64,000 nt of DNA, taken from positions 110,627-174,626 of the IMG/VR virus record IMGVR_UViG_3300023048_000001; one strand, given 5' to 3'. A model generated the notes under the pieces. The model did no database searches and was not told the DNA's origin. It was given only the letters and a program-made list of their open reading frames with translations. Shown here in pieces: positions 3,539 through 39,318 of the stretch (position 1 is the first letter of the stretch; each line of letters begins with the position of its first letter). The position numbers and the translations under genes were made by a program. The stretch comes from a virus (Duplodnaviria > Caudoviricetes).

Positions 3539-3640
3539 TTGACTGATTTCGATTTCTATTATAAAATAGGATGGAGGCTGGAAGACTAGCCTCCCGAAAC
3601 TGAACAAATAAAAAGCCCCGACCAACGTGGCCGAGGCTTT
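3539..3640 (+). promoter_or_regulatory. promoter plus short hairpin transcript sharing the module left-site motif
   Basis: TTGACT-N17-TAAAAT, then AGGATGGAGGCTGG-AAGA-CTAGCCTCC hairpin and a terminator-like stem. Confidence 0.55.
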
Positions 3641-4234: not shown

Positions 4235-4670
4235 TGTGGTGTATCCCTTGAGTTGATGGAAGAATTATATAACGTAATTCAGATGGTGTCAACATGTTTC
4301 GGCATATTTCTACATGCTTCTAGTGCTTCTACCATCTGACGCAAAATATGGGCTACCTGTGTACCAGTGTACTCGTTTTTACCACTCTCAATCGACTGTG
4401 CAATGGTTTCAACATTGACAGCCCTTCCACCTTCACGAATGATCATAATGATTCCTCTATGTGAAGGTAGTGTATGCAATCTCACATCTTTAAAACAAGA
4501 TGCGGTGCAACAATCATTAGTGGGAACGGATGTAAGGAATAGCCACAATGCCCACTACAACGATGATGTACAGGACAGCGCTAAAGAAGTTCGAAAGTGA
4601 CATGAGTCTATCTCCGTGGTGTGGAATCATTATATTTAAGATGATCCAGCATGTCAACACTTTGAGCATA

Positions 4671-6777: not shown

Positions 6778-7272
6778 CTACTTTTCTTCACTTTCGTTAG
6801 TAATGGTGTTGGAACACAGATCACGAATCCCGTCAAGCGCCAGCGAATCCCGGAAGTTCGCCAGATTGATGTCACGAGCGCATTCATTACAATAGTGGGC
6901 ACGGGTGCTTCGGTTGAACCAATAGGCTCCCGGAGCCAGACAGGCAGAACGGTTGCACAAGCCACCACGTTCACCTTTAACCTTTGAAAGCTGGGTAAGG
7001 GTGTTGATGTGTTCGCGTTCGAACTGGCGGTGTTGCTTGTTGATCAGAAATGCATGATCGATCACGCTGGGGAAGTTGTTAGGGGAGTAGTTATGTTGCG
7101 TGAGCCAGTTTTCGATAAGTGCAGAGCACTTTTGATTATTCGTTTCGTAGAACAGTTCAGGCCAAGGTTTGGCAATGTACATATTCACGAAACGCTGCCC
7201 CATGCGTTGCTTATCGTGTGCTTCTTTGCGGTAGTGATAATCGTAGAACTCGATAAGTAAGCTGATGGTCAT
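6778..7272 (-). CDS. hypothetical Zn-finger protein
   Basis: CNRSAC...YCNECA motif. Confidence 0.7.
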   Translation of the reverse strand: MTISLLIEFYDYHYRKEAHDKQRMGQRFVNMYIAKPWPELFYETNNQKCSALIENWLTQHNYSPNNFPSVIDHAFLINKQHRQFEREHINTLTQLSKVKGERGGLCNRSACLAPGAYWFNRSTRAHYCNECARDINLANFRDSLALDGIRDLCSNTITNESEEK

Positions 7273-7387
7273 TTGCCCTATCCCTCGTTTGAGTATGTGA
7301 AGAGTGTAAAGGGTGATTCACACATGTCAATAGGCTGTGTAACATTTGTGATGCTCTTTTTCGGTGGGGGTTTTGTTTCATTGATAC

Positions 7388-7466
7388 CTTCAAAGATTGT
7401 GAGGGTAGTTCTCCAGCCACAACCTATTTTACCATATGGAACCTGAATGTAGCCTGAACAATCAAT
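7388..7466. repeat. module left site, copy 1
   Basis: CTTCAAAG-N17-CCAGCCACAACCTATTTTA...CTGAATGTAGCCTGAACA; same spacing at 11327..11406, core at 15951..15996. Confidence 0.85.
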
Positions 7467-7546
7467 TGAATATAATGGTTGACAGGTGGGTTACGTTTTA
7501 GTAGTCTGGATGGATGTGATATCGACCAAGGGAGGTCCGAACCTGA

Positions 7547-7945
7547 ATGGTTTGTAAAGTTATCGTTAAGCCATTGTTAGCTGTTGAGCAACCGGTCATT
7601 GACCAGTTTCGTCTACACAATCATGGCTATGAAGAAGGTAGGATGCTGGAAGCCATTGACTTTGCTTACAATGAAAGGAACCTTGGCGAGGATGACAATA
7701 GAGTATACCGGGCAGTGACCGCTGGTTACATTCTGGATGATGGTGAGTTACATTCATGGGGTCTGATATACGAGTTGTATGAGTCCCGTGGGGTGTATTC
7801 CTATCACATGGATGTATACACGGTACCCAAGGCCAGAGGGATGGGTTACGGTACACTGATAGTGAAGACCCTCAAGCAATTACATGATGGCTACATCTAT
7901 ACGTACAAGGCACATTCTTCGATCTACACCAGACTAGGGATGTAA
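7547..7945 (+). CDS. GNAT-family acetyltransferase
   Basis: Acetyl-CoA motif A VYTVPKARGMGYGT; GGAGG RBS. Confidence 0.8.
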   Translation: MVCKVIVKPLLAVEQPVIDQFRLHNHGYEEGRMLEAIDFAYNERNLGEDDNRVYRAVTAGYILDDGELHSWGLIYELYESRGVYSYHMDVYTVPKARGMGYGTLIVKTLKQLHDGYIYTYKAHSSIYTRLGM

Positions 7946-7972
7946 TTAAGTCCTTACGCTTGCGTAACCATA
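7944..7972. repeat. module right site, copy 1 (palindrome)
   Basis: TAAGTCCTTACGCTTGCGTAA identical at 11881 and 16518; TTACGC-TT-GCGTAA inverted repeat. Confidence 0.9.
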
Positions 7973-7996
7973 AAGGCCCCTACAGGGGCCTTTGTT

Positions 7997-8356
7997 TTAT
8001 GCGAGGATTGAGAGTGGATGAGTCTCGACTTCTACCGCATTGTTGAATTTAAATGCCACTTGTCCAATGGACACTGGTTCAACTATCTTAATCTTAAAGA
8101 TTTTAACAACATAGCCATACTTCTGCAACAGTTCAATCATCCCCTGATTGAACCATGTACGTAATGCTTCCATGCTATCACATCCAAAGTGATATTCAGG
8201 AGCAATCAACCTATGTGGTGGTGCTGGATGAGAGTCAGCCTTAAGGTGTTCATGGATGATATCGCAATACGCTGCATCATCACTATAACTCATATCTAGG
8301 CCCTTCATGGAGAACGGACCCACACCGGACGGAGTTTCAACACGGTAGACAAGCAT
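7997..8356 (-). CDS. hypothetical protein, YRxE..GxGPF paralog family
   Basis: Similar to 25505..25825 and 26116..26481. Confidence 0.75.
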   Translation of the reverse strand: MLVYRVETPSGVGPFSMKGLDMSYSDDAAYCDIIHEHLKADSHPAPPHRLIAPEYHFGCDSMEALRTWFNQGMIELLQKYGYVVKIFKIKIVEPVSIGQVAFKFNNAVEVETHPLSILA

Positions 8357-8370
8357 GGGTCCAATAATCC

Positions 8371-8667
8371 TTAAGCAGCCGTGGCAACAGTCTTGGCAGC
8401 AATCTTACGGGCAGTAGCCTCGTTGGTGCGACGGATGGCACGGTTCAGTGCATCACGCAGAGCGGTGGCACGCTTGACGTTGGTGACCAGCGTCAGCGGA
8501 CCCGTACCCTGACTATAAGCATTGATTCCGGCTTCTGCAAGAATCTGTGCAACTTCGTTACGCGACTGGATGGTGCCCTCGTAGGTACGAGCCTCAGCCT
8601 GCGAATCGAACAGCTTGCCGTCAGAGGTTTCGAACTTGGTAACAGCCTTGATGGAGGTAATAGCCAT
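8371..8667 (-). CDS. hypothetical protein
   Basis: 98 aa, FETSDGKLFDSQAEA motif, RBS. Confidence 0.75.
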   Translation of the reverse strand: MAITSIKAVTKFETSDGKLFDSQAEARTYEGTIQSRNEVAQILAEAGINAYSQGTGPLTLVTNVKRATALRDALNRAIRRTNEATARKIAAKTVATAA

Positions 8668-8699
8668 GGTGTTATGTCCTGTTAAATAGTGTGTTTGAT

Positions 8700-8845
8700 G
8701 ATGTAGAAAATGGCAAAACCTTGGAAAATCAGGTAAATAACCATTAAAAATTGATAAAAACGCTTAAAAATCAACGATTTAGGGTCATTTTCAGCGTATT
8801 TTGGCATCGAAAAGGCCAAAAACAACCCCAAAAACCCGAAAATTA
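8700..8845. other. phased A/T-tract (intrinsically curved DNA)
   Basis: About 14 A or T tracts at ~10-bp period in an ORF-free gap. Confidence 0.65.
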
Positions 8846-8857
8846 TGATCAATGTGG

Positions 8858-9859
8858 TCATGTGTGTAGGAGTTCGTGTGCCTGACGATGGAGATAATTT
8901 ACGTCATCTTCACTGAGGTTGTCAACTAATTTAATTGTTCCATTGAGGATATTTTCAGAAACTTTGTGTATGAAGGTCAAATCTGCCTTGGATACGACCT
9001 CACGGTAATTATTTAAAGCAAAATCTCTGAACCATCCTGAGGTGAGAGTGGTACAAACACGTTCCAGTGCCTTGTGGAAGGCCTTTGAGACGTCTCTCTC
9101 ACCATTTAAAAGATATCTCTCAGTGGCTATCACGTAACTCTCTTCTAGTACGCAACAGATTTGCTGATGGTGAGTCAGGTCATCCCACTTTCTCTTTAAA
9201 CATAATGCCATTTCAAGATCATCCTTCATCTTTTCATAGATGGGACGGTCCTCATGCTTCACGGCTTCATGGATATCATCGTGAATGACGAAATATCTCA
9301 CGCTGTAGTGCTTGTCACTGAAGAATTCAGAATTGGTCATGTTCAGCTTGGGAGTAGACTTACGTCTCACACGGTTGGTCGTCTCCTTCTTACGTAGCTG
9401 GGCATACCTCAGGTCCATCTTTAACTTATTCTCAGACACGTATGCCTGTAGGTCTAGGTAGTCCTGTACATTCTTAGCAAAATGGATAGGGTGATTGATG
9501 TGGGCTCGCTTAGTAGCGAACAGGTCAGCGATGGGGAGGGCTTCAAAGGTGTTGTTGAAATCATCATCCACCAAAGGACCAAGCATCGTTCCACGGTTGT
9601 AGATGTATTCTACCGAGGGAAGGAGGTTGTTTTCAATTTCATAGTGAACCTTGCGCTCACCATAGAGGTCTAGTATTACACTGACCTTGTACTCAGACTT
9701 ACTTTTAAACTTAATGACATGGGAGCTAACACGCTCATACCATGCATCATATTCATCGGTAGACATAAAAACGTCAAAGTCCGCTCGTGCTAGACGGGCA
9801 GACTCGACTTTAATCTTATTGTGTGCAGCTAATGCACGAGAGCCAATAATGTACATCAC
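8858..9859 (-). CDS. nucleotidyltransferase-fold protein
   Basis: N-terminal IIGSRAL...ADFDV (GS..DxD) motif; C-terminal HDDIHEAV and LTSGWFRDFAL block typical of a phage NTase family. Confidence 0.65.
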   Translation of the reverse strand: MMYIIGSRALAAHNKIKVESARLARADFDVFMSTDEYDAWYERVSSHVIKFKSKSEYKVSVILDLYGERKVHYEIENNLLPSVEYIYNRGTMLGPLVDDDFNNTFEALPIADLFATKRAHINHPIHFAKNVQDYLDLQAYVSENKLKMDLRYAQLRKKETTNRVRRKSTPKLNMTNSEFFSDKHYSVRYFVIHDDIHEAVKHEDRPIYEKMKDDLEMALCLKRKWDDLTHHQQICCVLEESYVIATERYLLNGERDVSKAFHKALERVCTTLTSGWFRDFALNNYREVVSKADLTFIHKVSENILNGTIKLVDNLSEDDVNYLHRQAHELLHT

Positions 9860-9904
9860 AAATCCTAAATGATGTACACATTCTATTGACTAGCTGTGTT
9901 TAAA

Positions 9905-10231
9905 TCAAACTGGCGGGTTGAAATGGATATCCGGCCAGATGACGTAGGTCTTGTCTTCATTGATGATGATACCACCCATGAGGCCATGACGTGCGGCAAT
10001 CTCAAGGATTTGTGCCGGGGAACCTTCCATTGCCCAGCAACGCGGCTGCGCCATGTGGAAGCTGAAACCCTTCTTGACAACCGTAGCACAAACTGTCTGC
10101 TCTTCGATATGATCGAACAGAGCCTTCAGGTCTTCATGCGAATCACCACGGCTATAAGACGCCAGATTCACTGACAACTCACGATTCGATCCGTTGTAGG
10201 ATTGAATCATCTTTTCGATAAGGGGATGCAT
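9905..10231 (-). CDS. hypothetical protein
   Basis: 108 aa, GAGGA RBS. Confidence 0.7.
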   Translation of the reverse strand: MHPLIEKMIQSYNGSNRELSVNLASYSRGDSHEDLKALFDHIEEQTVCATVVKKGFSFHMAQPRCWAMEGSPAQILEIAARHGLMGGIIINEDKTYVIWPDIHFNPPV

Positions 10232-10240
10232 GATGGTTCC

Positions 10241-10876
10241 TCAGAGTGATGCAACGTTGAGTTTGGGAAGCATTGCCTTTGACCAACGATAGAACATGTG
10301 CCGTCCTACCCGAGCGATGAGCTTGTAATTCTTGTCCTTAGCCCAATAAGGTTTAACATATTCAGCATGGTAGTGCGTCATGCCATCGATGTCAATCTTC
10401 TTGGAAGGCTTTAACGCACCAAGCATGACCAGCTTTGCGATAGTATATGACTGTTCCCATTCCGCTGCAACAGCATCGTTCGTGAAATCAATATCATGGT
10501 TCTCACCATCGCATACCCATGAGAATGAACACTTGGCCTTGATGAGGTTACCATGACTGTCTGTGTTGGCCTGATTGACCACACCACAGATGGTGGAAGG
10601 GAAGTGGGGAGACATGGTGCGTTCCAGTACAACGGTGGCAACCATCACCTTTCCATTTGCATCCTCACCACGCGATTCAAAGAATACGTTTTGAGCCATG
10701 CAATCCAATTGCACCATATCCAACATCTGAATAGGTTTAACAGTGTTGGGTGGAATCGCAACGGCTATATGTGACCGTGGCCGAACGATTGCGTATTCCC
10801 ACAATGCTGCAATCATTAGTGAAGCAAATAACCCGAAGCTTACCCAAGCCATGAAAGAACACAGGCGAGTTCGCAT
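10241..10876 (-). CDS. SleB/Hydrolase_2 cell-wall hydrolase with N-terminal TM anchor
   Basis: CMAQNVFFESRGE, FPSTICGVV, FSWVCDG, THYHAEYVKPYW, GRHMFY; start chosen at the AAGGAG RBS. Confidence 0.88.
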   Translation of the reverse strand: MRTRLCSFMAWVSFGLFASLMIAALWEYAIVRPRSHIAVAIPPNTVKPIQMLDMVQLDCMAQNVFFESRGEDANGKVMVATVVLERTMSPHFPSTICGVVNQANTDSHGNLIKAKCSFSWVCDGENHDIDFTNDAVAAEWEQSYTIAKLVMLGALKPSKKIDIDGMTHYHAEYVKPYWAKDKNYKLIARVGRHMFYRWSKAMLPKLNVASL

Positions 10877-10922
10877 CTCTACTCCTTGTTGAGTCAGTGG
10901 GGTAATGATACGGTTATATAAT

Positions 10923-11276
10923 TTAAATGTCAATAGCTGGGAAGCGAGCCATAGCAGTAGGGACACCACCCAATGCACGAGTGGCTTCCTTCCATTCTTT
11001 ACCATGGATGTATCGTGCATAAGGGAACATGATCCCCTGAACGATATGTGCTATTTCGTGAGGAATGATTTCCTGTATCACGTAATCCCGGTTCATACGT
11101 GCATAGGCTGGATTGATGTAGACGACATTGATGTTCTGGTCAGCCAGACCTACATAGTCATCACCAATATCTTCAATTCTGAGCTTGATGTTATACATGT
11201 CAAGATCAGGCCACAGAAGCTTCGCCTTGGCTAGGCAACGATTGAATGCAATATGCAGTGCGGGATAGAGTTCCAT
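10923..11276 (-). CDS. SprT-like zinc metalloprotease
   Basis: IPHEIAH...HGKEWK. Confidence 0.85.
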   Translation of the reverse strand: MELYPALHIAFNRCLAKAKLLWPDLDMYNIKLRIEDIGDDYVGLADQNINVVYINPAYARMNRDYVIQEIIPHEIAHIVQGIMFPYARYIHGKEWKEATRALGGVPTAMARFPAIDI

Positions 11277-11326
11277 GGTAAAAGAATATCCGATTTAAAT
11301 TATACGGTCAAGCCTTTCACCAAAAT

Positions 11327-11406
11327 CTTCAAAGTCGAGAAGGCATATCCCCCAGCCACAACCTATTTTATCATATCTATTCTGAACGTAGGCTGAACAG
11401 ATCAAT
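11327..11406. repeat. module left site, copy 2
   Basis: CTTCAAAG-N17-CCAGCCACAACCTATTTTA...CTGAACGTAGGCTGAACA. Confidence 0.85.
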
Positions 11407-11496
11407 ATCGTTTAGATTCGGTTCATATGTTAACGGCATAATGACTTCTGTGAATTTGGCATCAACGTTTGAGCATCATATAACAGGTTGTTAAGA

Positions 11497-11883
11497 ATGA
11501 GTTACGTAATCGTCTATAGTGAACCACTTGAGTCAATTAGTTCGGAAATGCGCAAAGAGCTTTACACACTGAACTCTGGTACCAATGGAAGGATGCAATG
11601 CAACCTTGCATATTACGGTACACAGAATGCTCGCATGCAAAATGCTACAGTGTTCTATATCCTCAAAAGGAATAAAGTCGTTTCATGGGCAGTTGTGTAT
11701 AATCCAACTCTTTACCCAAATCGATTCTCCAAGAAATTTGAAATGGATATCTTCACCCGTAAGTCAGCCCGTGGTAATGGCTATGGAACTGCTGTTGCGG
11801 AAACAGTGAGAGATGCATTTAAAGGTAAACTCATTCATGCGTGTAAGGGCATGACATCAGTCTATAGACGTGCTGGTATTTAA
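11497..11883 (+). CDS. GNAT-family acetyltransferase
   Basis: IFTRKSARGNGYGT; distant paralog of 7547..7945. Confidence 0.8.
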   Translation: MSYVIVYSEPLESISSEMRKELYTLNSGTNGRMQCNLAYYGTQNARMQNATVFYILKRNKVVSWAVVYNPTLYPNRFSKKFEMDIFTRKSARGNGYGTAVAETVRDAFKGKLIHACKGMTSVYRRAGI

Positions 11884-11922
11884 GTCCTTACGCTTGCGTA
11901 ATGTAGAGGTGTATGGTACAGT
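11881..11922 (+). promoter_or_regulatory. module right site, copy 2, overlapping a promoter
   Basis: TAAGTCCTTACGCTTGCGTAA; TTGCGT-N17-TACAGT upstream of 11929. Confidence 0.75.
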
Positions 11923-11928
11923 CCTAGC

Positions 11929-12432
11929 ATGGACACTATTATCTTCTTTGATCTTGAAAATACTCTCATATGGGATTGGACGGATAACCGCGATCCCATG
12001 TGGCTAAAGCACCCTGAAATCACCGAGTGGATTTTCGCTCAAGGTGATTTCCGTGCTGGTCTCTTTTCATGGGCTATCTGGAATCCTAAAGATATAGCCG
12101 AGTTCAGTGAAGAGGGTGGAGTCCGTGAAGCCATCGAAACAACCCACCAGTTTCAATTTGAGGATGATCTAATCATCACTCGTGGAATGCTGGGTGACCG
12201 CTTCAGGAAATGGTTTAAAACTATGCCTTGGGTCTCTGACGATGATTGGTTTGAGTTCTTCAAGAAGCGCCAGACCATCCAAGAGCTATGGCTCCATGAA
12301 TTCAATCAGCCGAACACTCGTGTTGTTCTATTGGATGACACTGTAGAGAACGTGACTATGATTAATAATAGTGTCGAGAACAACCGTCTAGAGTTGATCG
12401 ACCCATGGACCTTTAAGGGAATGTTTAAATGA
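11929..12432 (+). CDS. HAD-superfamily phosphatase-like protein
   Basis: IIFFDLENTL (motif I variant) and VLLDD (motif IV). Confidence 0.65.
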   Translation: MDTIIFFDLENTLIWDWTDNRDPMWLKHPEITEWIFAQGDFRAGLFSWAIWNPKDIAEFSEEGGVREAIETTHQFQFEDDLIITRGMLGDRFRKWFKTMPWVSDDDWFEFFKKRQTIQELWLHEFNQPNTRVVLLDDTVENVTMINNSVENNRLELIDPWTFKGMFK

Positions 12433-12752
12433 CAATGCGTTTCTTCGCTATCCAATGCACTGCTTGCAATGATGTGCTAATCAGCCGTGCAGGCCATGAC
12501 TTCAACCGCTGCTCATGTGAGGACATGCTATTCATCGATGGAAACAGTTCCCTGTCAGGTGATGGCTACTATCGTGTGGGTTACAACATCACTGAAGCTC
12601 GTCCTAGTGTCAATGTCATGTATGTCGATCTTCCCATTACACCAAGGGAAGCTTACGATGACTGGAACAAAAGAATTGATAAGTGGAAGAAAATCGATAT
12701 TACTAAGTATCCACCTATCGAAATTCCCAAAGAATCTGACAAGAATAAATAG
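12429..12752 (+). CDS. Zn-binding phage hypothetical protein
   Basis: AIQCTACNDVLISRAGHDFNRCSC...IDG. Confidence 0.75.
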   Translation: MTMRFFAIQCTACNDVLISRAGHDFNRCSCEDMLFIDGNSSLSGDGYYRVGYNITEARPSVNVMYVDLPITPREAYDDWNKRIDKWKKIDITKYPPIEIPKESDKNK

Positions 12753-12772
12753 ATCAAACATTAGGTAATAAC

Positions 12773-13105
12773 ATGACAGCACACGTTTCAAGTACTCAAA
12801 TCCTCGATCATATTAAAACTGCTACCTCTATCTCTGTAGAAGGTAAGGTCTTTGATAAGATCACTGTAACAGATACAAAGGTATCAATCGGTCCTTATAC
12901 CTTCCTCATTGATCATTTTGATATTGGTGGTCTGTCTCCACAGACTATCGTACTCATGGATACTGATGGTGAGTATAGACATCTTATGCTCCTAGGTGAG
13001 GATGATACCCGTCTCGATCATCCTGATTGGTCCATTGAACAATATAACCCTGAAAAGATTCGCAATCATCACCTCCTACCAAAGGGTGACAAGAAGACCA
13101 AATAA
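12773..13105 (+). CDS. hypothetical protein
   Basis: 110 aa, in operon. Confidence 0.7.
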   Translation: MTAHVSSTQILDHIKTATSISVEGKVFDKITVTDTKVSIGPYTFLIDHFDIGGLSPQTIVLMDTDGEYRHLMLLGEDDTRLDHPDWSIEQYNPEKIRNHHLLPKGDKKTK

Positions 13106-13145
13106 GGTTTGACAGGAAGTTATAAAACATCTAATATTTGTCTCG

Positions 13146-13273
13146 TGGTCAACAACATGTAACTCACCGCTAGGGCGGATATATTCACCAGTAATATATG
13201 AAGGTGCGATCCCTTGAGACAGCGTTAGACGTTCTATATGAGGGTGCGATTCCTTCCTGTTGTTGTGAAGCCA
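13146..13273 (+). ncRNA. tRNA-like RNA with two T-arms
   Basis: Promoter TTGACA-N17-TAATAT at 13109; closing stem CAACAACA/TGTTGTTG; AAGG-TGCGATC-CCTT and GAGGG-TGCGATT-CCTTC. Confidence 0.55.
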
Positions 13274-13382
13274 AAGTTACGGTGAAAAGTGATGCATAAG
13301 CCAAGCGTGCGTGTGCAAACATCTGATCCATTTTTCTAGAGAATGAAATCTAGCCGTAGCGGTACTAAATTTAGAATAATAT

Positions 13383-13467
13383 GCCACTATGGCGGAATAG
13401 GTAGACGCAGCAGACTTAAAATCTGCCGCCCTTGGGCGTCCGGGTTCGATTCCCGGTGGTGGTACCA
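13383..13467 (+). tRNA. tRNA-Leu(TAA)
   Basis: Class II cloverleaf, loop CT-TAA-AA, CCA. Confidence 0.95.
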
Positions 13468-13484
13468 TATTATTCAAACAGTTT

Positions 13485-13612
13485 GATCCCTTAGCTCAGT
13501 GGTCTGATGGAAGAACAATCATTCTTAGTGTAATCAGAATGACCTTCGGAAGTCTTAGAGCGGAGAACTCTAAATCCTCGCGTCGTGGGTTCGAATCCCA
13601 CAGGGATCGCCA
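13485..13612 (+). tRNA. amber-suppressor-type tRNA (CTA) with 52-nt D-loop insertion
   Basis: Acceptor GATCCCT/AGGGATC-G-CCA, D-stem GCTC/GAGC separated by the insertion, loop CT-CTA-AA (13570-72), perfect T-arm. Confidence 0.8.
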
Positions 13613-13746
13613 AATTGATGTAGTTGCAGTGAGACACACTCCTGTAATTTAAGTAGGCAAGAATGCAGTGACTTAATACTTCTTTTTAGTGTGTATAACA
13701 CAAAAGCCCTTGACGATTGTTAAGGGCTTTCTTTTTGGAAAATATA

Positions 13747-13986
13747 ATGGAACTTCTAATCAACATCTTATTCGTCCTCCACTTCGGCTATCATGCCGCT
13801 GCTACCATTGGTGGAGTCTGGTCCCTTCTACATAGCCACAATGCTCACAAACGTAGCTGGTGGAAGATTGCCCTAGCTTTTGTATGGCTCGCTTTGAGTA
13901 TCTTGCTACTCGTTGTCAGCCATGATAAACTCCATCATCACGAGGACGAATGCAATCATGTTCAAACTATTCAAGAAAAAGCCTGA
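13747..13986 (+). CDS. small membrane protein
   Basis: Two TM segments, His-rich tail. Confidence 0.65.
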   Translation: MELLINILFVLHFGYHAAATIGGVWSLLHSHNAHKRSWWKIALAFVWLALSILLLVVSHDKLHHHEDECNHVQTIQEKA

Positions 13987-14365
13987 ACCTTTCATCCATC
14001 ACGATCTGTACAAAAACGCAATCAAAGCTATTGATGAGCTTTTCAAGGATATGCTCAATGATGATGCCAAGATGCGTAAGCTTTACCTATTCCATTATGG
14101 TGAAGCGCCAGCCACAGAACTTCATGCCACCTTCGCAGCTACCCTAGTCCATAACCTCTACAATAGGGTTAGCCTAGAGCTTCCAACTAAGTTTAAAGAG
14201 AAACACGATACCTTTACATCCACTCTGGAATTCTGTTATACTCCTTATCTTGAAACAGGTGCAGTACTGGTCGAACTCAAGATCGCCACACTGTTACTCT
14301 GGAAAGCAACAGAACATCATCATAAAGATTGGACTACCTATGAAGAAGCAAACCCACAAACCTAA
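13958..14365 (+). CDS. hypothetical protein
   Basis: 135 aa, overlapping operon arrangement. Confidence 0.65.
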   Translation: MFKLFKKKPEPFIHHDLYKNAIKAIDELFKDMLNDDAKMRKLYLFHYGEAPATELHATFAATLVHNLYNRVSLELPTKFKEKHDTFTSTLEFCYTPYLETGAVLVELKIATLLLWKATEHHHKDWTTYEEANPQT

Positions 14366-14483
14366 AATTAATAACCTTGTGGCGAAACATGCCATGAAGG
14401 TGAACAAGGCTGCGGTCATGCGTGATCGTAAGAATGACTATAACCGTACCGACAAACATAAGAAGGGAGAAGGTGATGAGTAA
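14340..14483 (+). CDS. small basic conserved phage protein
   Basis: NLVAKHAMKVNKAAVMRDRK, common in T4-like phages. Confidence 0.65.
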   Translation: MKKQTHKPKINNLVAKHAMKVNKAAVMRDRKNDYNRTDKHKKGEGDE

Positions 14484-14731
14484 TTTCTTTAATTGGTACT
14501 TCGTTATCGGTGGTACTCTCTCACTTGCTCTCGTAATTGCATATATGTTCAATCCGGGAATGATCGATCCTCGACTACTCATCGTGACCAACTCATTTGC
14601 TGTTGCTGGTCTCGGATTCCGTATAGCTTATGATCATTATCACCCTGAAGCGTCAAAGCATTGACATTTGTGATTTTAAAGCATATTATACTTGCACCTA
14701 ATATAAACATCGAAGGATGCAATAAAAACCA

Positions 14732-14956
14732 ATGAGTAATGCGAAAAATCTTCAGGCTCAAATTCAGAAGCTCAGTAAGGATTTGGTTGAAGCAGAACAT
14801 AACCTGAATCAGGCTGAATCCAATCCTGATACCGATGAAGCTACTATGCTGGAACTTGAAGATATCGTACAAGATGTTCAGGATGCCCTCTATGATGCTC
14901 AGGAAGAACTCGATAGACTCTATGCTCCCGATGCCTACTACGATGATAACTATTAA
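14732..14956 (+). CDS. acidic coiled-coil hypothetical protein
   Basis: 74 aa, own promoter, followed by terminator. Confidence 0.7.
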   Translation: MSNAKNLQAQIQKLSKDLVEAEHNLNQAESNPDTDEATMLELEDIVQDVQDALYDAQEELDRLYAPDAYYDDNY

Positions 14957-14982
14957 TCAATAACTCATCTAGTAATGAATAG

Positions 14983-15006
14983 ACCCGCTTCGGCGGGTTT
15001 TCTTTT
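14983..15006 (+). terminator. intrinsic terminator
   Basis: ACCCGC-TTCG-GCGGGT-TTTCTTTT. Confidence 0.85.
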
Positions 15007-15402
15007 GCCCATCATTTGAACATACAAAGAAAAAGGCCACCCGAAGATGACCTTTCATTATAACTTAACCTAATACCTTAGACTTCAGATTCTTGCTCTG
15101 CCTTCTCACTCAAAGCTTTCTGATCCTCACGGCCTTCCCACATAGAAAAGACACCATAAACCATGACTGCAAACATCAAAATCCAGAAATCCAATAAATC
15201 AACAGTGACACCATGACGATGCATTACGTTAAACATCAATGACAGACCCACATACTGCAAGACCTGATAGAACTTAATGTTCTCCTTCACCCAATCCTTA
15301 ATCTTTGTCCACATGTATATACACTCCAAAAGTAATGTATATATTGTATCCTCTTAACAAACAAAAAGAAAGGGTCGTTTTCACGACCCTTTCATGGGTA
15401 AT

Positions 15403-15855
15403 TCAATATTCTGTTCCTTCGCACACTAACCCCCACTTATAACGTAACCCTCTCAGGTTCTTACCCAAATCCTCAAGGAAGTATCTCTTCTCCTGCCGTA
15501 TACTGTCATGCACCATCTGCAAATCTTGAAGAAATTCACACCTCATCTTCAAAAACTTCGCATCAATGTCATCCCGTACATCCAAATGATCCATGTAATG
15601 CTGCACCAGATAACACACCGATGTATGGTTACCCCTGTCCATTTCCGGTAAATATAAAGGGTCAGGCATGATCATCCCTATCGTATCCCTACACCCTCCC
15701 TCTCCCCTGTAACTACATCTGATTATCTGTAATTGATGATCGAAGGTCGTACTCTTCCTACCCTGCTCAACCATCCGTATCTCAACATATTCTAAAACTA
15801 TCTCTTCATTGATATAACCATTAAGATATTCTGATATACCTATCGTTGACATCAT
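15403..15855 (-). CDS. hypothetical protein, LxYVE...VEQG..CxY paralog family
   Basis: Similar to 29301..29756 and 29766..30215. Confidence 0.75.
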   Translation of the reverse strand: MMSTIGISEYLNGYINEEIVLEYVEIRMVEQGRKSTTFDHQLQIIRCSYRGEGGCRDTIGMIMPDPLYLPEMDRGNHTSVCYLVQHYMDHLDVRDDIDAKFLKMRCEFLQDLQMVHDSIRQEKRYFLEDLGKNLRGLRYKWGLVCEGTEY

Positions 15856-15859
15856 TCCT

Positions 15860-16950
15860 CTCCCTAAAGATTAGACTCCTGCCATCCTCAATATAACCCA
15901 TCCATACCACAAGTGTCAATCAACACAAAAATGTGACTGCCATTCTCCCCGCCTCCATCCTATTTTATCATATCCAACCTGAACCTAACCTGAACAAAAT
16001 TTATTTTCTCGATCACCCGTTTAACACCCCGAATCTGCGTATCATAGGCCTCCACCAACAAGGTATCCCATCTAACACACCTTACCTGAACGGTTACTGA
16101 ACCAATTGTTAAGAATGTTAAAACTTCGTTATCTTTAAAATGAATGGAACCTGAACCGTGGCTGAACGATGCCAGAACCGGTTTCATCTTAAAGATATAC
16201 ACAATCATCTTTAAAGTATTCGATGAATGCAACGTTCATCTTAAAACATAAGTGTAGTTTTTCCCCTTGCGAGCAAAGAATCATCCTAATAGTGATGTAT
16301 CGCATAGGGCAGAATGACACCAATCACTTACTCAATCATACCAATCCCTATAAAACAGTGGGATATCGTGGACTGCAACGGTCTATACGATAGGGTTAAG
16401 TGTGTTTTATCCCCTTACAAGCAAAGAATCTATACAATCATTCATCATAAAAATGATGTATCGCATAGGGGAAAAGTACACTAAGTCTCTTTAAACATAA
16501 ACAAACCCTGACCAAATTAAGTCCTTACGCTTGCGTAACCATAGGACATGTGTTAGTATATACATACTGAAACCGTTGGGAGACAACGACTGTAGATATT
16601 TTTAAATGAAAAATTAGCCAAAAGGTTATAAATTTTCAGAAAAAATGTAATCGCGATGCACGGGAAGTACCCTTGAAAGTAATCATCATATAACACAATT
16701 ACTTACCCGTTTCCGCACCCTTCTGCACCACCCATTCCCACTATTTTCCACCTATTCCCATTAATATTCTATTGAATTATTTCTTCAATAGAATCAATGA
16801 CTTATAACTGTACAAATGTATGGTCTGTAAGTGCTTGTAAACACTACAAAATATTAGTGTTTCTAATTACCTTTTGAGTGCACGTAACCTCGTTCCTATG
16901 GGAACGAGGAATCATGGCGTTGAGCCTTGTAACCTCGTACCTAACCTATG
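15860..16950. other. repeat-rich non-coding locus, candidate replication origin
   Basis: Module left site (15951-15996) and right site (16515-16543), extra CTGAAC pairs, four (T)CATCTT(T)AAA-like repeats, duplicated CCCCTTRCRAGCAAAGAATC and TGATGTATCGCATAGGG, hairpins; GC skew flips here. Confidence 0.55.
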
Positions 16951-16956
16951 TCTAGA

Positions 16957-18729: not shown

Positions 18730-19128
18730 TCATGACTTCTTCCTGTTTCTGGTGGATAGACGCTTGAGCATAGCAATTTCATCGTCATCATCTTCACAGG
18801 TGATAGGTGGTATGCGTTGGGTTGTATCTTCCTCTTCATCCCACATGATGTTCTTGAAGTCATCCTCATAAACCTTGGGTGCGAGTTCTCTTGTGCTAAA
18901 CAACTTCTCAAGGTAGTTATCTACCATTGAGTTTAGACTATAGGTTACTACAGTTTCAATTCGCACTACCTTGACTTCATAGCCCTTGACTATGAATTCT
19001 TTAATTTTTTTCTTGAAGTTTTCTGGTGATATACCATTAGGTGGCACTGACTCGACTGTCCAATTGGCAGAACTATTATGTCTGTACCAGATAGATAGCT
19101 TGTTCATGTCTATTTTTGTTTTATTCAT
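18730..19128 (-). CDS. hypothetical protein
   Basis: 132 aa, translationally coupled to 18485..18733 and 18264..18488. Confidence 0.65.
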   Translation of the reverse strand: MNKTKIDMNKLSIWYRHNSSANWTVESVPPNGISPENFKKKIKEFIVKGYEVKVVRIETVVTYSLNSMVDNYLEKLFSTRELAPKVYEDDFKNIMWDEEEDTTQRIPPITCEDDDDEIAMLKRLSTRNRKKS

Positions 19129-27322: not shown

Positions 27323-28170
27323 CGGGCTGAGAATAGACCCTGACACGTTGATACTTTAGTTTGGATTATGGCATCTTGCGGATGCTTTCCCACTTTTCCA
27401 CTACAACCATCCTTCCGAATGCATCATAGTATATCAACATAGCAGCCTTATTTAAGTGGTGGCATTTCCACTGTCACCGTAACCTATTCGGCATGTCCTA
27501 TTCAGTCTGCCTTGCGAGCAGCAAAGGGTTCGACCCCATCCTTGCAATTCTTTACCAACATTCATCGGCCTTGCGAGCTTCCGAATGACTCTATTGTCTT
27601 ACGACTAGAGCATTATGCTATTTTCAGTTACGACCGAATCCGTCTTTGCGTTTTTTCAAGGTTGGATTTGAACCAACGTATGATCGTTTAAGAGACGATT
27701 GCTTATCCACTAAGCTACTAGTTATCCCACTAAGGTCGAGCGGATTCATAGGTCCATACCCTTTTGGGGTACAAAATTCTATCCGACCTCATCTGCTTCT
27801 CACCCGCTAAGGTTACACTCGCAGTTCGTTTCACGACTCTTTCAAGCCATTAACAATGTATAAACGCATTCGTCCGCTAAGACTCACACCCTCATACTAC
27901 CAATTCATCATCCACTGGTTCAACGTTAGACCGGCTAGAGGTTTCTATTCCTCTCATCACTCACCGATTGGCCTGTGATGGTTTTAACCGCATTGAATTC
28001 CAATATATCTCCGAAAGCTTCCGAAGCCAGAGCGTTCCACTCTGTGATATGTTGGCTTTTATAAACGAGTCCATTTTCATGGTGGGACGCTGGTAGGCGC
28101 ATTCCCGTTTGACACCTCACGGTATCTTATCTCTCCCTCATAACCCTTTCGAATTATGAGGTACTACACA
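27323..28170 (-). ncRNA. giant structured ncRNA, GOLLD-like
   Basis: ~850 nt without a credible ORF, own promoter, many GNRA-capped stems, embedded tRNA, located in a tRNA cluster; family call from memory of GOLLD architecture. Confidence 0.65.
27654..27724 (-). tRNA. embedded tRNA-Lys(CTT)-like domain with disrupted acceptor stem
   Basis: D-arm GCTT/AAGC, ATCGT-CTCTTAA-ACGAT, GTTGG-TTCAAAT-CCAAC; no good acceptor stem or CCA. Confidence 0.7.
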
Positions 28171-36404: not shown

Positions 36405-36482
36405 TGGTGGCCAGAGGTGGATTCGACCCACCATCTACCGGTTAAAATACCGGTGATTTTGAACCGCTTAAACTATCCGGCC
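36405..36482 (-). tRNA. Lys-like tRNA with 8-nt anticodon loop
   Basis: GGCCGGA/TCTGGCC-A-CCA; ACCGG-TATTTTAA-CCGGT; T-loop GTCGAAT. Confidence 0.7.
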
Positions 36483-39221: not shown

Positions 39222-39318
39222 TGATGCTAGGAAGAAGGGATTCGAACCCTTGGTTTGATGTTATCGCACATCCGCTCTTTAAGGCGGAACACTTTAATCC
39301 TCTCGGTCACTTCCCGCA
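39222..39318 (-). ncRNA. Ser-body tRNA-like RNA, 8-nt loop, bulged acceptor
   Basis: TCCGC-CTTAAAGA-GCGGA, long variable arm, AAGGG-TTCGAAT-CCCTT. Confidence 0.6.

Follow-up and report, generated by a model that had tools for sequence, protein, structure and literature searches.

A three-copy module of probable promoter, cargo and near-palindrome in a jumbo-phage contig and its conservation in XacN1-like phages

What keeps the two ends of a short DNA module nearly constant when the DNA between them differs from copy to copy? The question is raised by a 64,000-nucleotide stretch of viral DNA (Duplodnaviria; Caudoviricetes), positions 110,627 to 174,626 of the IMG/VR record IMGVR_UViG_3300023048_000001. 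We refer to this whole stretch as the window; it represents the last 64 kb of a 174.6-kb contig with a completeness of about 50%. An earlier note, made from the sequence alone, described three units between positions 7388 and 16543, each consisting of a left site, about 540 bp of cargo and a right site, and suggested multiple replication origins, a looping regulon or the ends of recombination cassettes as explanations. We read the module as a conserved regulatory cassette which XacN1-like jumbo phages carry in their early or terminal-repeat region; this reading combines three parts, and we rate the chance that the combination is correct as about even. Our verdict is that the cassette is neither a dedicated mobile element nor a set of replication origins, and that it is closest to the PeSL (promoter-early stem-loop) cassettes of T4-type phages.

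The layout of the three units was largely as described. The right site TAAGTCCTTACGCTTGCGTAA is present in three identical copies at positions 7947-7967, 11881-11901 and 16518-16538, all on the plus strand, and was matched 0 times in 100 shuffles, even with three mismatches allowed. The left core CCTATTTTANCATAT occurs exactly at 7423, 11362 and 15959 and is accompanied at the claimed fixed offsets by the direct repeat CTGAA-N6-CTGAAC, of which additional copies are found within copy 3 at 16086 and 16151. The spacing from left core to right site is indeed 524, 519 and 559 bp, and the block CTTCAAAG-N17-CCAGCCACAA is confined to copies 1 and 2. Copies 1 and 2 contain genes for strongly diverged GNAT-like proteins (31% identity, E 4e-16) and the cargo of copy 3 is non-coding, with no trace of a GNAT gene in tblastn. 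The flanks are better conserved than the cargo: identity between copies is 0.81-1.00 for the 26-bp right site and 0.57-0.77 for the 73-bp left site, and the cargo DNA identity of 0.48-0.53 equals that of shuffled controls. Some statements had to be amended. The GNAT stop codon, said to abut the right site, overlaps the site in copy 2 and ends one base before it in copy 1. The number of three copies holds for the window, and the contig has a fourth module 5.7 kb before the window (contig positions 104262-104965), with AA as the palindrome centre, no CTGAAC repeats and an open reading frame (ORF) of 95 amino acids as cargo.

The DNA polymerase of this phage is closest to that of the Xanthomonas jumbo phage XacN1 (50% identity), followed by those of Xoo-sp13 and the Stenotrophomonas phages CM1 and RAS14. 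Only distant relatives were recovered by the searches: a 10-kb megablast against the phage collection and IMG/VR protein scans with GNAT, DUF7275 and P0003 gave no relative, and initial IMG/VR motif scans returned four loci (L005-L008), all of them chance matches. Closer GNAT homologues (P0002-P0005) were found at 57-74% identity. At least nine genomes or contigs of related jumbo phages contain the right site, at 4-7 copies per genome. A metagenome scan identified exact right sites at four loci on three contigs, an IMG/VR scan identified two jumbo genomes of 340-350 kb (G001 and G002), and a short blastn query led to RAS14 and CM1. Pattern searches counted five right sites in RAS14, five in CM1, four to five in Xoo-sp13 and five unique sites in XacN1, four of which are duplicated in its terminal repeats; no right site was found by pattern search in Ralstonia phage RsoM2USA, and reversed-pattern controls gave 0 matches in every case. 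The consensus is (AAT)-TAAGTCC-TWACGC-NN-GCGTWA-(CC or GG), in which the 2-bp centre is free. At the four metagenome loci tested, the right sites and promoter cores are the sole DNA similarity to this phage, and the protein matches are limited to GNATs at 25-33% identity plus two other proteins at one locus (L015).

The two ends are also linked. The left core, in the orientation of the window modules, is a reversed copy of a promoter element (element A, described below), and this reversed element was found 465-750 bp upstream of about 16 of 22 right sites, a count that partly rests on manual reading. In the window, in XacN1 (19093, 22953, 26812) and in Xoo-sp13 (19009, 21746, 26364) three sites lie about 2.7-4.6 kb apart, and this shared spacing indicates that the arrangement is old. 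Unlinked occurrence of the two sites, or their absence from related phages, had been named as the outcome that would speak against the module; both sites were found to be linked and conserved in related phages. Nine copies of element A in this phage without a right site, and a few right sites in the relatives without element A, weigh against a joint role of the two ends. The pairing is frequent and not obligatory, and it may reflect shared ancestry rather than joint function.

The left site is very probably a promoter which fires leftward, away from the cargo. The minus-strand core TAAAATAGG(T/A)TG(T/G)GGCTGG, which defines element A, has 13 occurrences at contig positions 96.7-126.6 kb. In class A, comprising nine or ten copies, TTGACT or TTGCAC is located exactly 17 bp from TAAAAT and the upstream sequence is A/T-rich; judged from these motifs, class A represents a near-consensus sigma-70 promoter with a conserved, G-rich predicted transcript start. 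The four class B copies have the same -10 and transcript start as class A, and their -35 is replaced by RTTCAG-N5-RTTCAG. Class B consists of the three left sites of the window and a copy at contig position 107181. What had been regarded as a cassette-specific end is one subtype of a 13-copy promoter family with nine members that lack a right site.

In module 1, the class B promoter covers positions 7388-7459 on the minus strand, with the box GTTCAG-N5-ATTCAG at 7443-7459, an 11-nt gap and the -10 TAAAAT at 7426-7431; the -10 is preceded by TGn, and the conserved G-rich transcript start (AGGTTGTGGCTGG...) lies at 7388-7425. The corresponding promoters of module 2 (11327-11398, minus strand) and module 3 (15925-15995, minus strand) have the box GTTCAG-N5-GTTCAG at 11382-11398 and 15979-15995 and TAAAAT at 11365-11370 and 15962-15967, respectively. 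The three promoters face the minus-strand gene 6778-7272, a SprT-like/cell-wall-hydrolase operon that runs from 11276 down to about 7997, and the minus-strand gene 15403-15855, each of which also has a proximal sigma-70-type promoter. For gene 6778-7272 this is TTGACA-16-TACACT at 7303-7330 (minus strand), in tandem with the class B promoter, and ahead of gene 15403-15855 it is TTGACA-18-TATATT at 15919-15890 (minus strand). The block CTTCAAAG-N17-CCAGCCACAA would then be the start of the leftward transcript. Its variable 17-mer was also considered as a conserved hairpin in the leader and was rejected, as the fold z-scores (-0.6 and +0.8) are no better than those of shuffles.

Nine class A copies are located at contig positions 96.7-114.2 kb (window -13934 to 3570), and the sole copy inside the window is at 3548-3583 on the plus strand. 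Eight of the nine point rightward against leftward genes, and seven of these meet a bidirectional terminator after about 45-60 nt, so that they would produce very short G-rich transcripts. Small RNAs, decoys or R-loop formers are candidate purposes of such transcripts.

The direct repeats in the left sites had been compared to the boxes of OmpR/PhoB-type activators at -35. The position and the match to such a box were confirmed, with the difference that the promoter reads leftward, away from the cargo. The window contains RTTCAG-N5-RTTCAG five times, with an expectation of 0.11, and each of the five is on the minus strand. The predicted PhoP site of Pseudomonas aeruginosa is CGTTCAGNNNNNRTTCAG, and the motif derived from chromatin immunoprecipitation sequencing is G/ATTCAG (PMC7916210). 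In Salmonella PhoP promoters of architecture I, a single directly oriented box is placed 11-12 nt upstream of the -10, and since it overlaps the -35 these promoters act as class II promoters (PMC3335776). The hexamers GTTCAG-N5-(A/G)TTCAG of the three left sites and of the copy at 107181 agree with the PhoP-box consensus, which is that of P. aeruginosa. The gap between box and TAAAAT is 11 nt, the class II geometry, in all four copies of this phage, in three copies of the contig locus L012 and in 13 copies of G001 and G002. The composite box-N11-TAAAAT occurs eight and five times in these two relatives, which are both 100% complete according to CheckV, with 0 matches in controls, and 0 times in XacN1, Xoo-sp13 and RAS14.

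As in PhoP class II promoters, the phage box is made up of two direct hexamers with a 5-nt spacer and an 11-bp period, replaces the -35 and ends 11-12 nt upstream of the -10, and its hexamer RTTCAG is the motif of the P. aeruginosa PhoP box (PMC7916210). Unlike PhoP promoters, the phage copies share their -10 and transcript start with a constitutive-looking sigma-70 family, in a lytic jumbo phage, and copy 3 has three boxes within one 200-bp stretch. Genes were examined in five relatives, the two IMG/VR genomes G001 and G002 and the deposited complete genomes of RAS14, XacN1 and Xoo-sp13. No gene of the OmpR-type winged-helix family (Trans_reg_C) was found in this contig or in the five relatives, which suggests that the reader of the box is probably a response regulator of the host. 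A MotA-type gene was not found either, in a search which had no positive control. The chance that the box is read by PhoP or a PhoP-like regulator is, in our view, somewhat better than even. The P. aeruginosa consensus may not be that of the actual host, and a phage activator of unrecognised fold is a possible alternative reader of the RTTCAG boxes. A single CGTTCAGGTTAGGTTCAG, the same sequence as the box of window copy 3, is present in RAS14 (L016:163-190; RAS14 319446-319473); its position is close to the end of the record, and TAAAAT is missing at the usual distance from it.

The right site can be read at the level of DNA or of RNA, and we lean, with slightly more than even confidence, towards DNA. 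In the favoured form of this reading, the site would be bound as duplex DNA by a dimeric phage protein, at a full half-site and a shortened one. The arms occur in three states, TT..AA, TA..TA and the non-pairing TA..AA, the last in six core-intact module-type copies of G001 and G002, so the arms are not kept complementary by compensatory changes in all lineages. The isolated hairpin of the right-site RNA is weak (-2.5 to -2.8 kcal/mol). The non-complementary lineage variant together with the weak RNA hairpin favours a DNA site. No Rfam family was detected at the sites. The right site was also considered as a common motif of host genomes and rejected as such: the full motif has three scattered matches in 596 Gb of cellular genomes, which is not above a rough chance estimate of about 17. 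This lack of enrichment makes a phage-encoded reader likelier than a host factor. A promoter TTGCGT-N17-TAnnnT had been proposed over the palindrome of copies 2 and 3; it has three of six matches to the -35, was not called in a consensus scan and is not kept in other copies or relatives, and was therefore dropped.

The main rival to the DNA reading is that a phage protein recognizes a short hairpin and the single-stranded UAAGUCC in the rightward transcript. The site would then be a signal for antitermination or termination, comparable to nut, or a place of processing, or an operator of translation after the first cistron. The orientation and position of the sites fit such a signal and count against the DNA reading: about 19 of 21 right sites are co-oriented with local transcription and run in the same direction as the unit which they end, and many are located between cistrons, where a stop codon immediately precedes them and the following start codon is 5-35 nt away. 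Three sites are followed by an intrinsic terminator within 5-45 nt. Copies within a genome are identical and two lineages differ by a symmetric T/A swap, a pattern of within-genome identity and between-lineage swap that is also displayed by lambdoid boxB/N pairs. On the other side, the arm TAACGC..GCGTAA of the six G001 and G002 copies contains an A-A mismatch, the hairpin is weak and is left unused in the minimum-energy fold of copy 2, one site (L014) is located after an intrinsic terminator, and the sites at 19093 in XacN1 and 19009 in Xoo-sp13 are antisense between leftward genes, beside a leftward -35. We regard the RNA reading as unlikely, and the DNA reading of the right site is the one used below.

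Full 28-bp palindromes of the form AAAG(T/A)CCTWACGC-NN-GCGTWAGG(A/T)CTTT were observed at L071:2047-2074 (G002) and L072:2078-2105 (G001), within a conserved lipase-like gene. The two genomes differ here by a symmetric double change (GTCC/GGAC versus GACC/GGTC), which results in one amino-acid change and one synonymous change. As these palindromes are inside a conserved coding region, they were given no weight.

Right site 1 (AAT-TAAGTCC-TTACGC-TT-GCGTAA-CC) is located at 7944-7969 on the plus strand, after cargo 1 (7547-7945, plus strand), which encodes a GNAT-like acetyltransferase of 132 amino acids. From its sequence, TTGACA-N17-TAGTCT at 7479-7507 (plus strand) is the candidate promoter of cargo 1, and a rightward TTGACAGG...TAGTCT occupies the corresponding position in the non-coding module of XacN1. 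A bidirectional intrinsic terminator, GGCCCC-TACA-GGGGCC with flanking A/T runs (7972-7998, fold -20.9 kcal/mol, z -3.6), separates right site 1 from the leftward operon that converges on it. Cargo 2 (11497-11883, plus strand) encodes a GNAT-like acetyltransferase of 128 amino acids and heads a rightward operon; the first three bases of right site 2 (11878-11903, plus strand) are the GNAT stop codon TAA, and the next gene starts at 11929. Right site 3 is at 16515-16540 on the plus strand.

Copy 3 differs from the other copies in its cargo, which is non-coding (15996-16517) and contains PhoP-type boxes at 16086-16102 and 16151-16167, ATCTT(T)AAA repeats and twin long repeats. It was considered as a decayed GNAT gene, and this was rejected by the lack of a tblastn trace. 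Non-coding modules are present in XacN1 (65.4-66.1 kb), Xoo-sp13 (about 71.1-71.7 kb), RAS14 (266.8-267.4 kb) and L012. Each of them comprises a reversed element A, a TTGACA promoter that reads rightward, non-coding DNA of about 0.55 kb and a right site. Copy 3 is therefore a conserved non-coding locus and not a degenerate gene. The sequence TGTTAAAACTTCGTTA, at 16116-16131 in copy 3, is found at a similar relative position in the modules of XacN1 and Xoo-sp13, and is repeated about six times in Xoo-sp13 in an iteron-like manner. The terminal repeat of XacN1 ends at 65,875 (PMC5852040). This boundary is inside the non-coding module (L062), 218 bp before its right site. It lies between a TGTTAAAAnTTCGTTA repeat array and GATATC palindromes (L062; Xoo-sp13 module L052). 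As a lead, copy 3 could be the site of the terminal-repeat boundary, or of replication or packaging start, in this phage. A sharp global inversion of GC skew at copy 3 was rejected; the profile in 2-kb windows showed a local dip with no clear switch. The suggestion of multiple replication origins found no support in the GNAT copies, and origin- or terminus-like content is restricted to the non-coding copy 3.

Several features of the module also bring to mind a mobile or invertible cassette, in which both sites are ends moved by a dedicated site-specific enzyme and the right site serves as the crossover or cleavage site, or as a strand-specific nick site like that of phage T5. Between the conserved ends, the cargo may be a GNAT gene, some other small ORF or a non-coding block, and Xoo-sp13 has a leftward gene at this place. 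The symmetric arms enclose a variable 2-bp centre, the palindrome extends over a full 28 bp in two copies of G001 and G002, the exact-consensus copies (0 mismatches to the search pattern) are all on one strand in each genome, and one XacN1 site is 218 bp outside the terminal-repeat boundary. We nevertheless consider this explanation improbable. Serine (PF00239) and tyrosine (PF00589) recombinase genes are absent from G001, G002, RAS14, XacN1 and Xoo-sp13, all of which carry the sites, and PF00239 is also absent from this half-genome contig, while as positive controls PF00239 matched 12 of 14 and PF00589 14 of 14 control genomes; recombination cassette ends are unlikely on this result. Furthermore, the syntenic modules about 2.7-4.6 kb apart in this phage, XacN1 and Xoo-sp13 argue for long stability rather than recent movement, both full palindromes are within the conserved coding region, and the left "end" is simply one of the members of a promoter family.

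The GNAT assignment of the cargo is provisional. With the Pfam model Acetyltransf_1, which has a cut-off of 20.7 bits, the two window proteins reach 20.2 and 20.6 bits. The RAS14 protein in the syntenic position reaches 37.9 bits with the Pfam GNAT model, ORF064 of XacN1 is annotated as N-acetyltransferase, and a profile of the family shows a weak match to diamine acetyltransferase 2bei (E 0.0067). A right site follows all 11 GNAT paralogues examined, namely two of this phage, those of L012, L013, RAS14, XacN1 (ORF064) and Xoo-sp13, and two each of G001 and G002. That the modules are mere remnants of the copying of one promoter-GNAT unit, with genes that diverged, promoters that stayed constrained and a right site without function, would fit the paralogy of the two GNATs and the multiple copies of element A in this genome, but this very improbable explanation is already contradicted by a right site that recurs, exactly or nearly so, in nine or more genomes or contigs, that stands beside GNATs of 25-33% identity at four tested metagenome loci with no other DNA similarity left, and that is also found without a GNAT and without element A, and by cargo DNA identity at the shuffled level.

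Our interpretation of the cassette can be outlined as follows. At the left site, the minus-strand element-A promoter would fire leftward into the adjoining operon. Class B promoters, with a tandem RTTCAG box in place of the -35, would be class II promoters that depend on an activator, which we infer to be most likely a PhoP-type response regulator of the host. Back to back with this promoter, the cargo would be a rightward unit of about 0.5 kb, consisting of a GNAT gene, another small gene or a non-coding block of iterons and palindromes, and the leftward element A and the rightward promoter together would form a divergent promoter hub. The right site is predicted to be bound by a dimeric phage protein encoded within the clade, and may act as an operator or boundary on rightward transcription past the first unit. 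The cassette ends are repeated and conserved and thus provide patches of homology, at which ordinary phage recombination could result in duplication of the cassette and exchange of cargo, as for PeSL in T4-type phages.

This likeness to PeSL has limits. Both systems have small conserved regulatory flanks around short, variable and mostly unknown genes in a hyperplastic early region (PMC2839356, PMC4122927), in both the flanks are much better conserved than the cargo, and the repeats could be used here, as they can in PeSL, as homology patches for the exchange of cargo without a dedicated recombinase. A PeSL is one composite unit in front of each gene, consisting of a terminator stem-loop, a strong sigma-70 early promoter and a Shine-Dalgarno sequence, and neighbouring PeSL copies recombine to yield indels or mini-circles (PMC2839356, PMC4122927). 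Unlike PeSL, the cassette described here has two different ends, a promoter pointing off the cargo and a near-palindrome without a T run, and its right site is conserved across genera. The right site, which lacks a T run, is not a terminator; its hairpin is weak (-2.5 kcal/mol) and the overlapping promoter was not called. As the anatomy of PeSL is not reproduced, we claim no more than that the cassette would work as a PeSL does, by supplying homology for the shuffling of modules. Judged by their motifs, it is the TATAAT-CCACACCACAGGAG leader units, and not the left and right sites, that are truly PeSL-like in this region. About 20 leftward genes at contig positions 95-116 kb (e.g., window 4616-4634) share a unit of TATAAT, GGAATCACACCACAGGAGATACAC and then ATG, and two terminator loops among these genes display CCACACCACA.

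The right site also resembles phage operators and the nut sites of lambda in being a short symmetric signal which is identical within a genome and changes between lineages. Its place behind the first gene of an early operon also matches lambda, where nutR follows cro. Unlike in nut, the arms of the right site are not always complementary and a conserved asymmetric 7-nt extension is present, and unlike for both nut and operators, its partner, N-like or repressor-like, is putative only.

The surroundings of the modules show further features. The G+C content is 46-49% at contig positions 94-123 kb and 38-40% elsewhere. This compositional island, which reaches to about window position 12000, contains densely packed small genes, mostly leftward, with repeated promoter-leader units, and in our analysis it would represent a hyperplastic early region of the kind known from T4-type phages (PMC2839356, PMC4122927). 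The island may be a terminal repeat or the region injected first. Its left edge (contig 93.5-94.0 kb) and a place about 3.5 kb past its right edge (window 15856-16956) are occupied by non-coding blocks, which have the motif (T)TCCAGAAAAAATGTAA in common. Searches of the flanking genes with PHROGs and Pfam gave nothing informative on function. A full-length GOLLD RNA (Rfam RF02032) was detected at window 27324-27791 on the minus strand (201.8 bits against a gathering score of 150), with an embedded tRNA at 27653-27724 and about 14 tRNA genes around it; for two of these, at 36405-36482 and 39226-39316, ARAGORN predicted odd anticodon loops.

Taken one step further, the right site and element A could form a clade-specific punctuation, a joint reading which we offer as speculation of rather low probability. 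A phage DNA-binding protein would read the 21-28 bp near-palindrome and set domain boundaries, and the physical terminal-repeat boundary would fall within the non-coding cassette (window copy 3; XacN1 65.4-66.1 kb), which would thus act in end formation, packaging or replication start. Host PhoP, a sensor of Mg2+ and envelope stress, would gate four to eight early promoters in one sub-lineage, and a lytic giant phage would in that case read the physiological state of its host at takeover.

The promoter family, the activator-box subtype and the boundary site are the first cis-regulatory vocabulary to be defined for this clade of phages of 310-385 kb, which has received little study. Four members of the clade have been cultured (XacN1, Xoo-sp13, RAS14 and CM1), which makes all our inferences testable at the bench, and the right site could be used directly as bait to find a new protein that binds DNA or RNA. 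How the longest known terminal repeats of phages are delimited may be approached through the non-coding cassette over the XacN1 boundary. If host PhoP drives the early promoters, a virulent phage couples its takeover genes to a two-component signal of the host, and the type of box could help to predict hosts for uncultured relatives.

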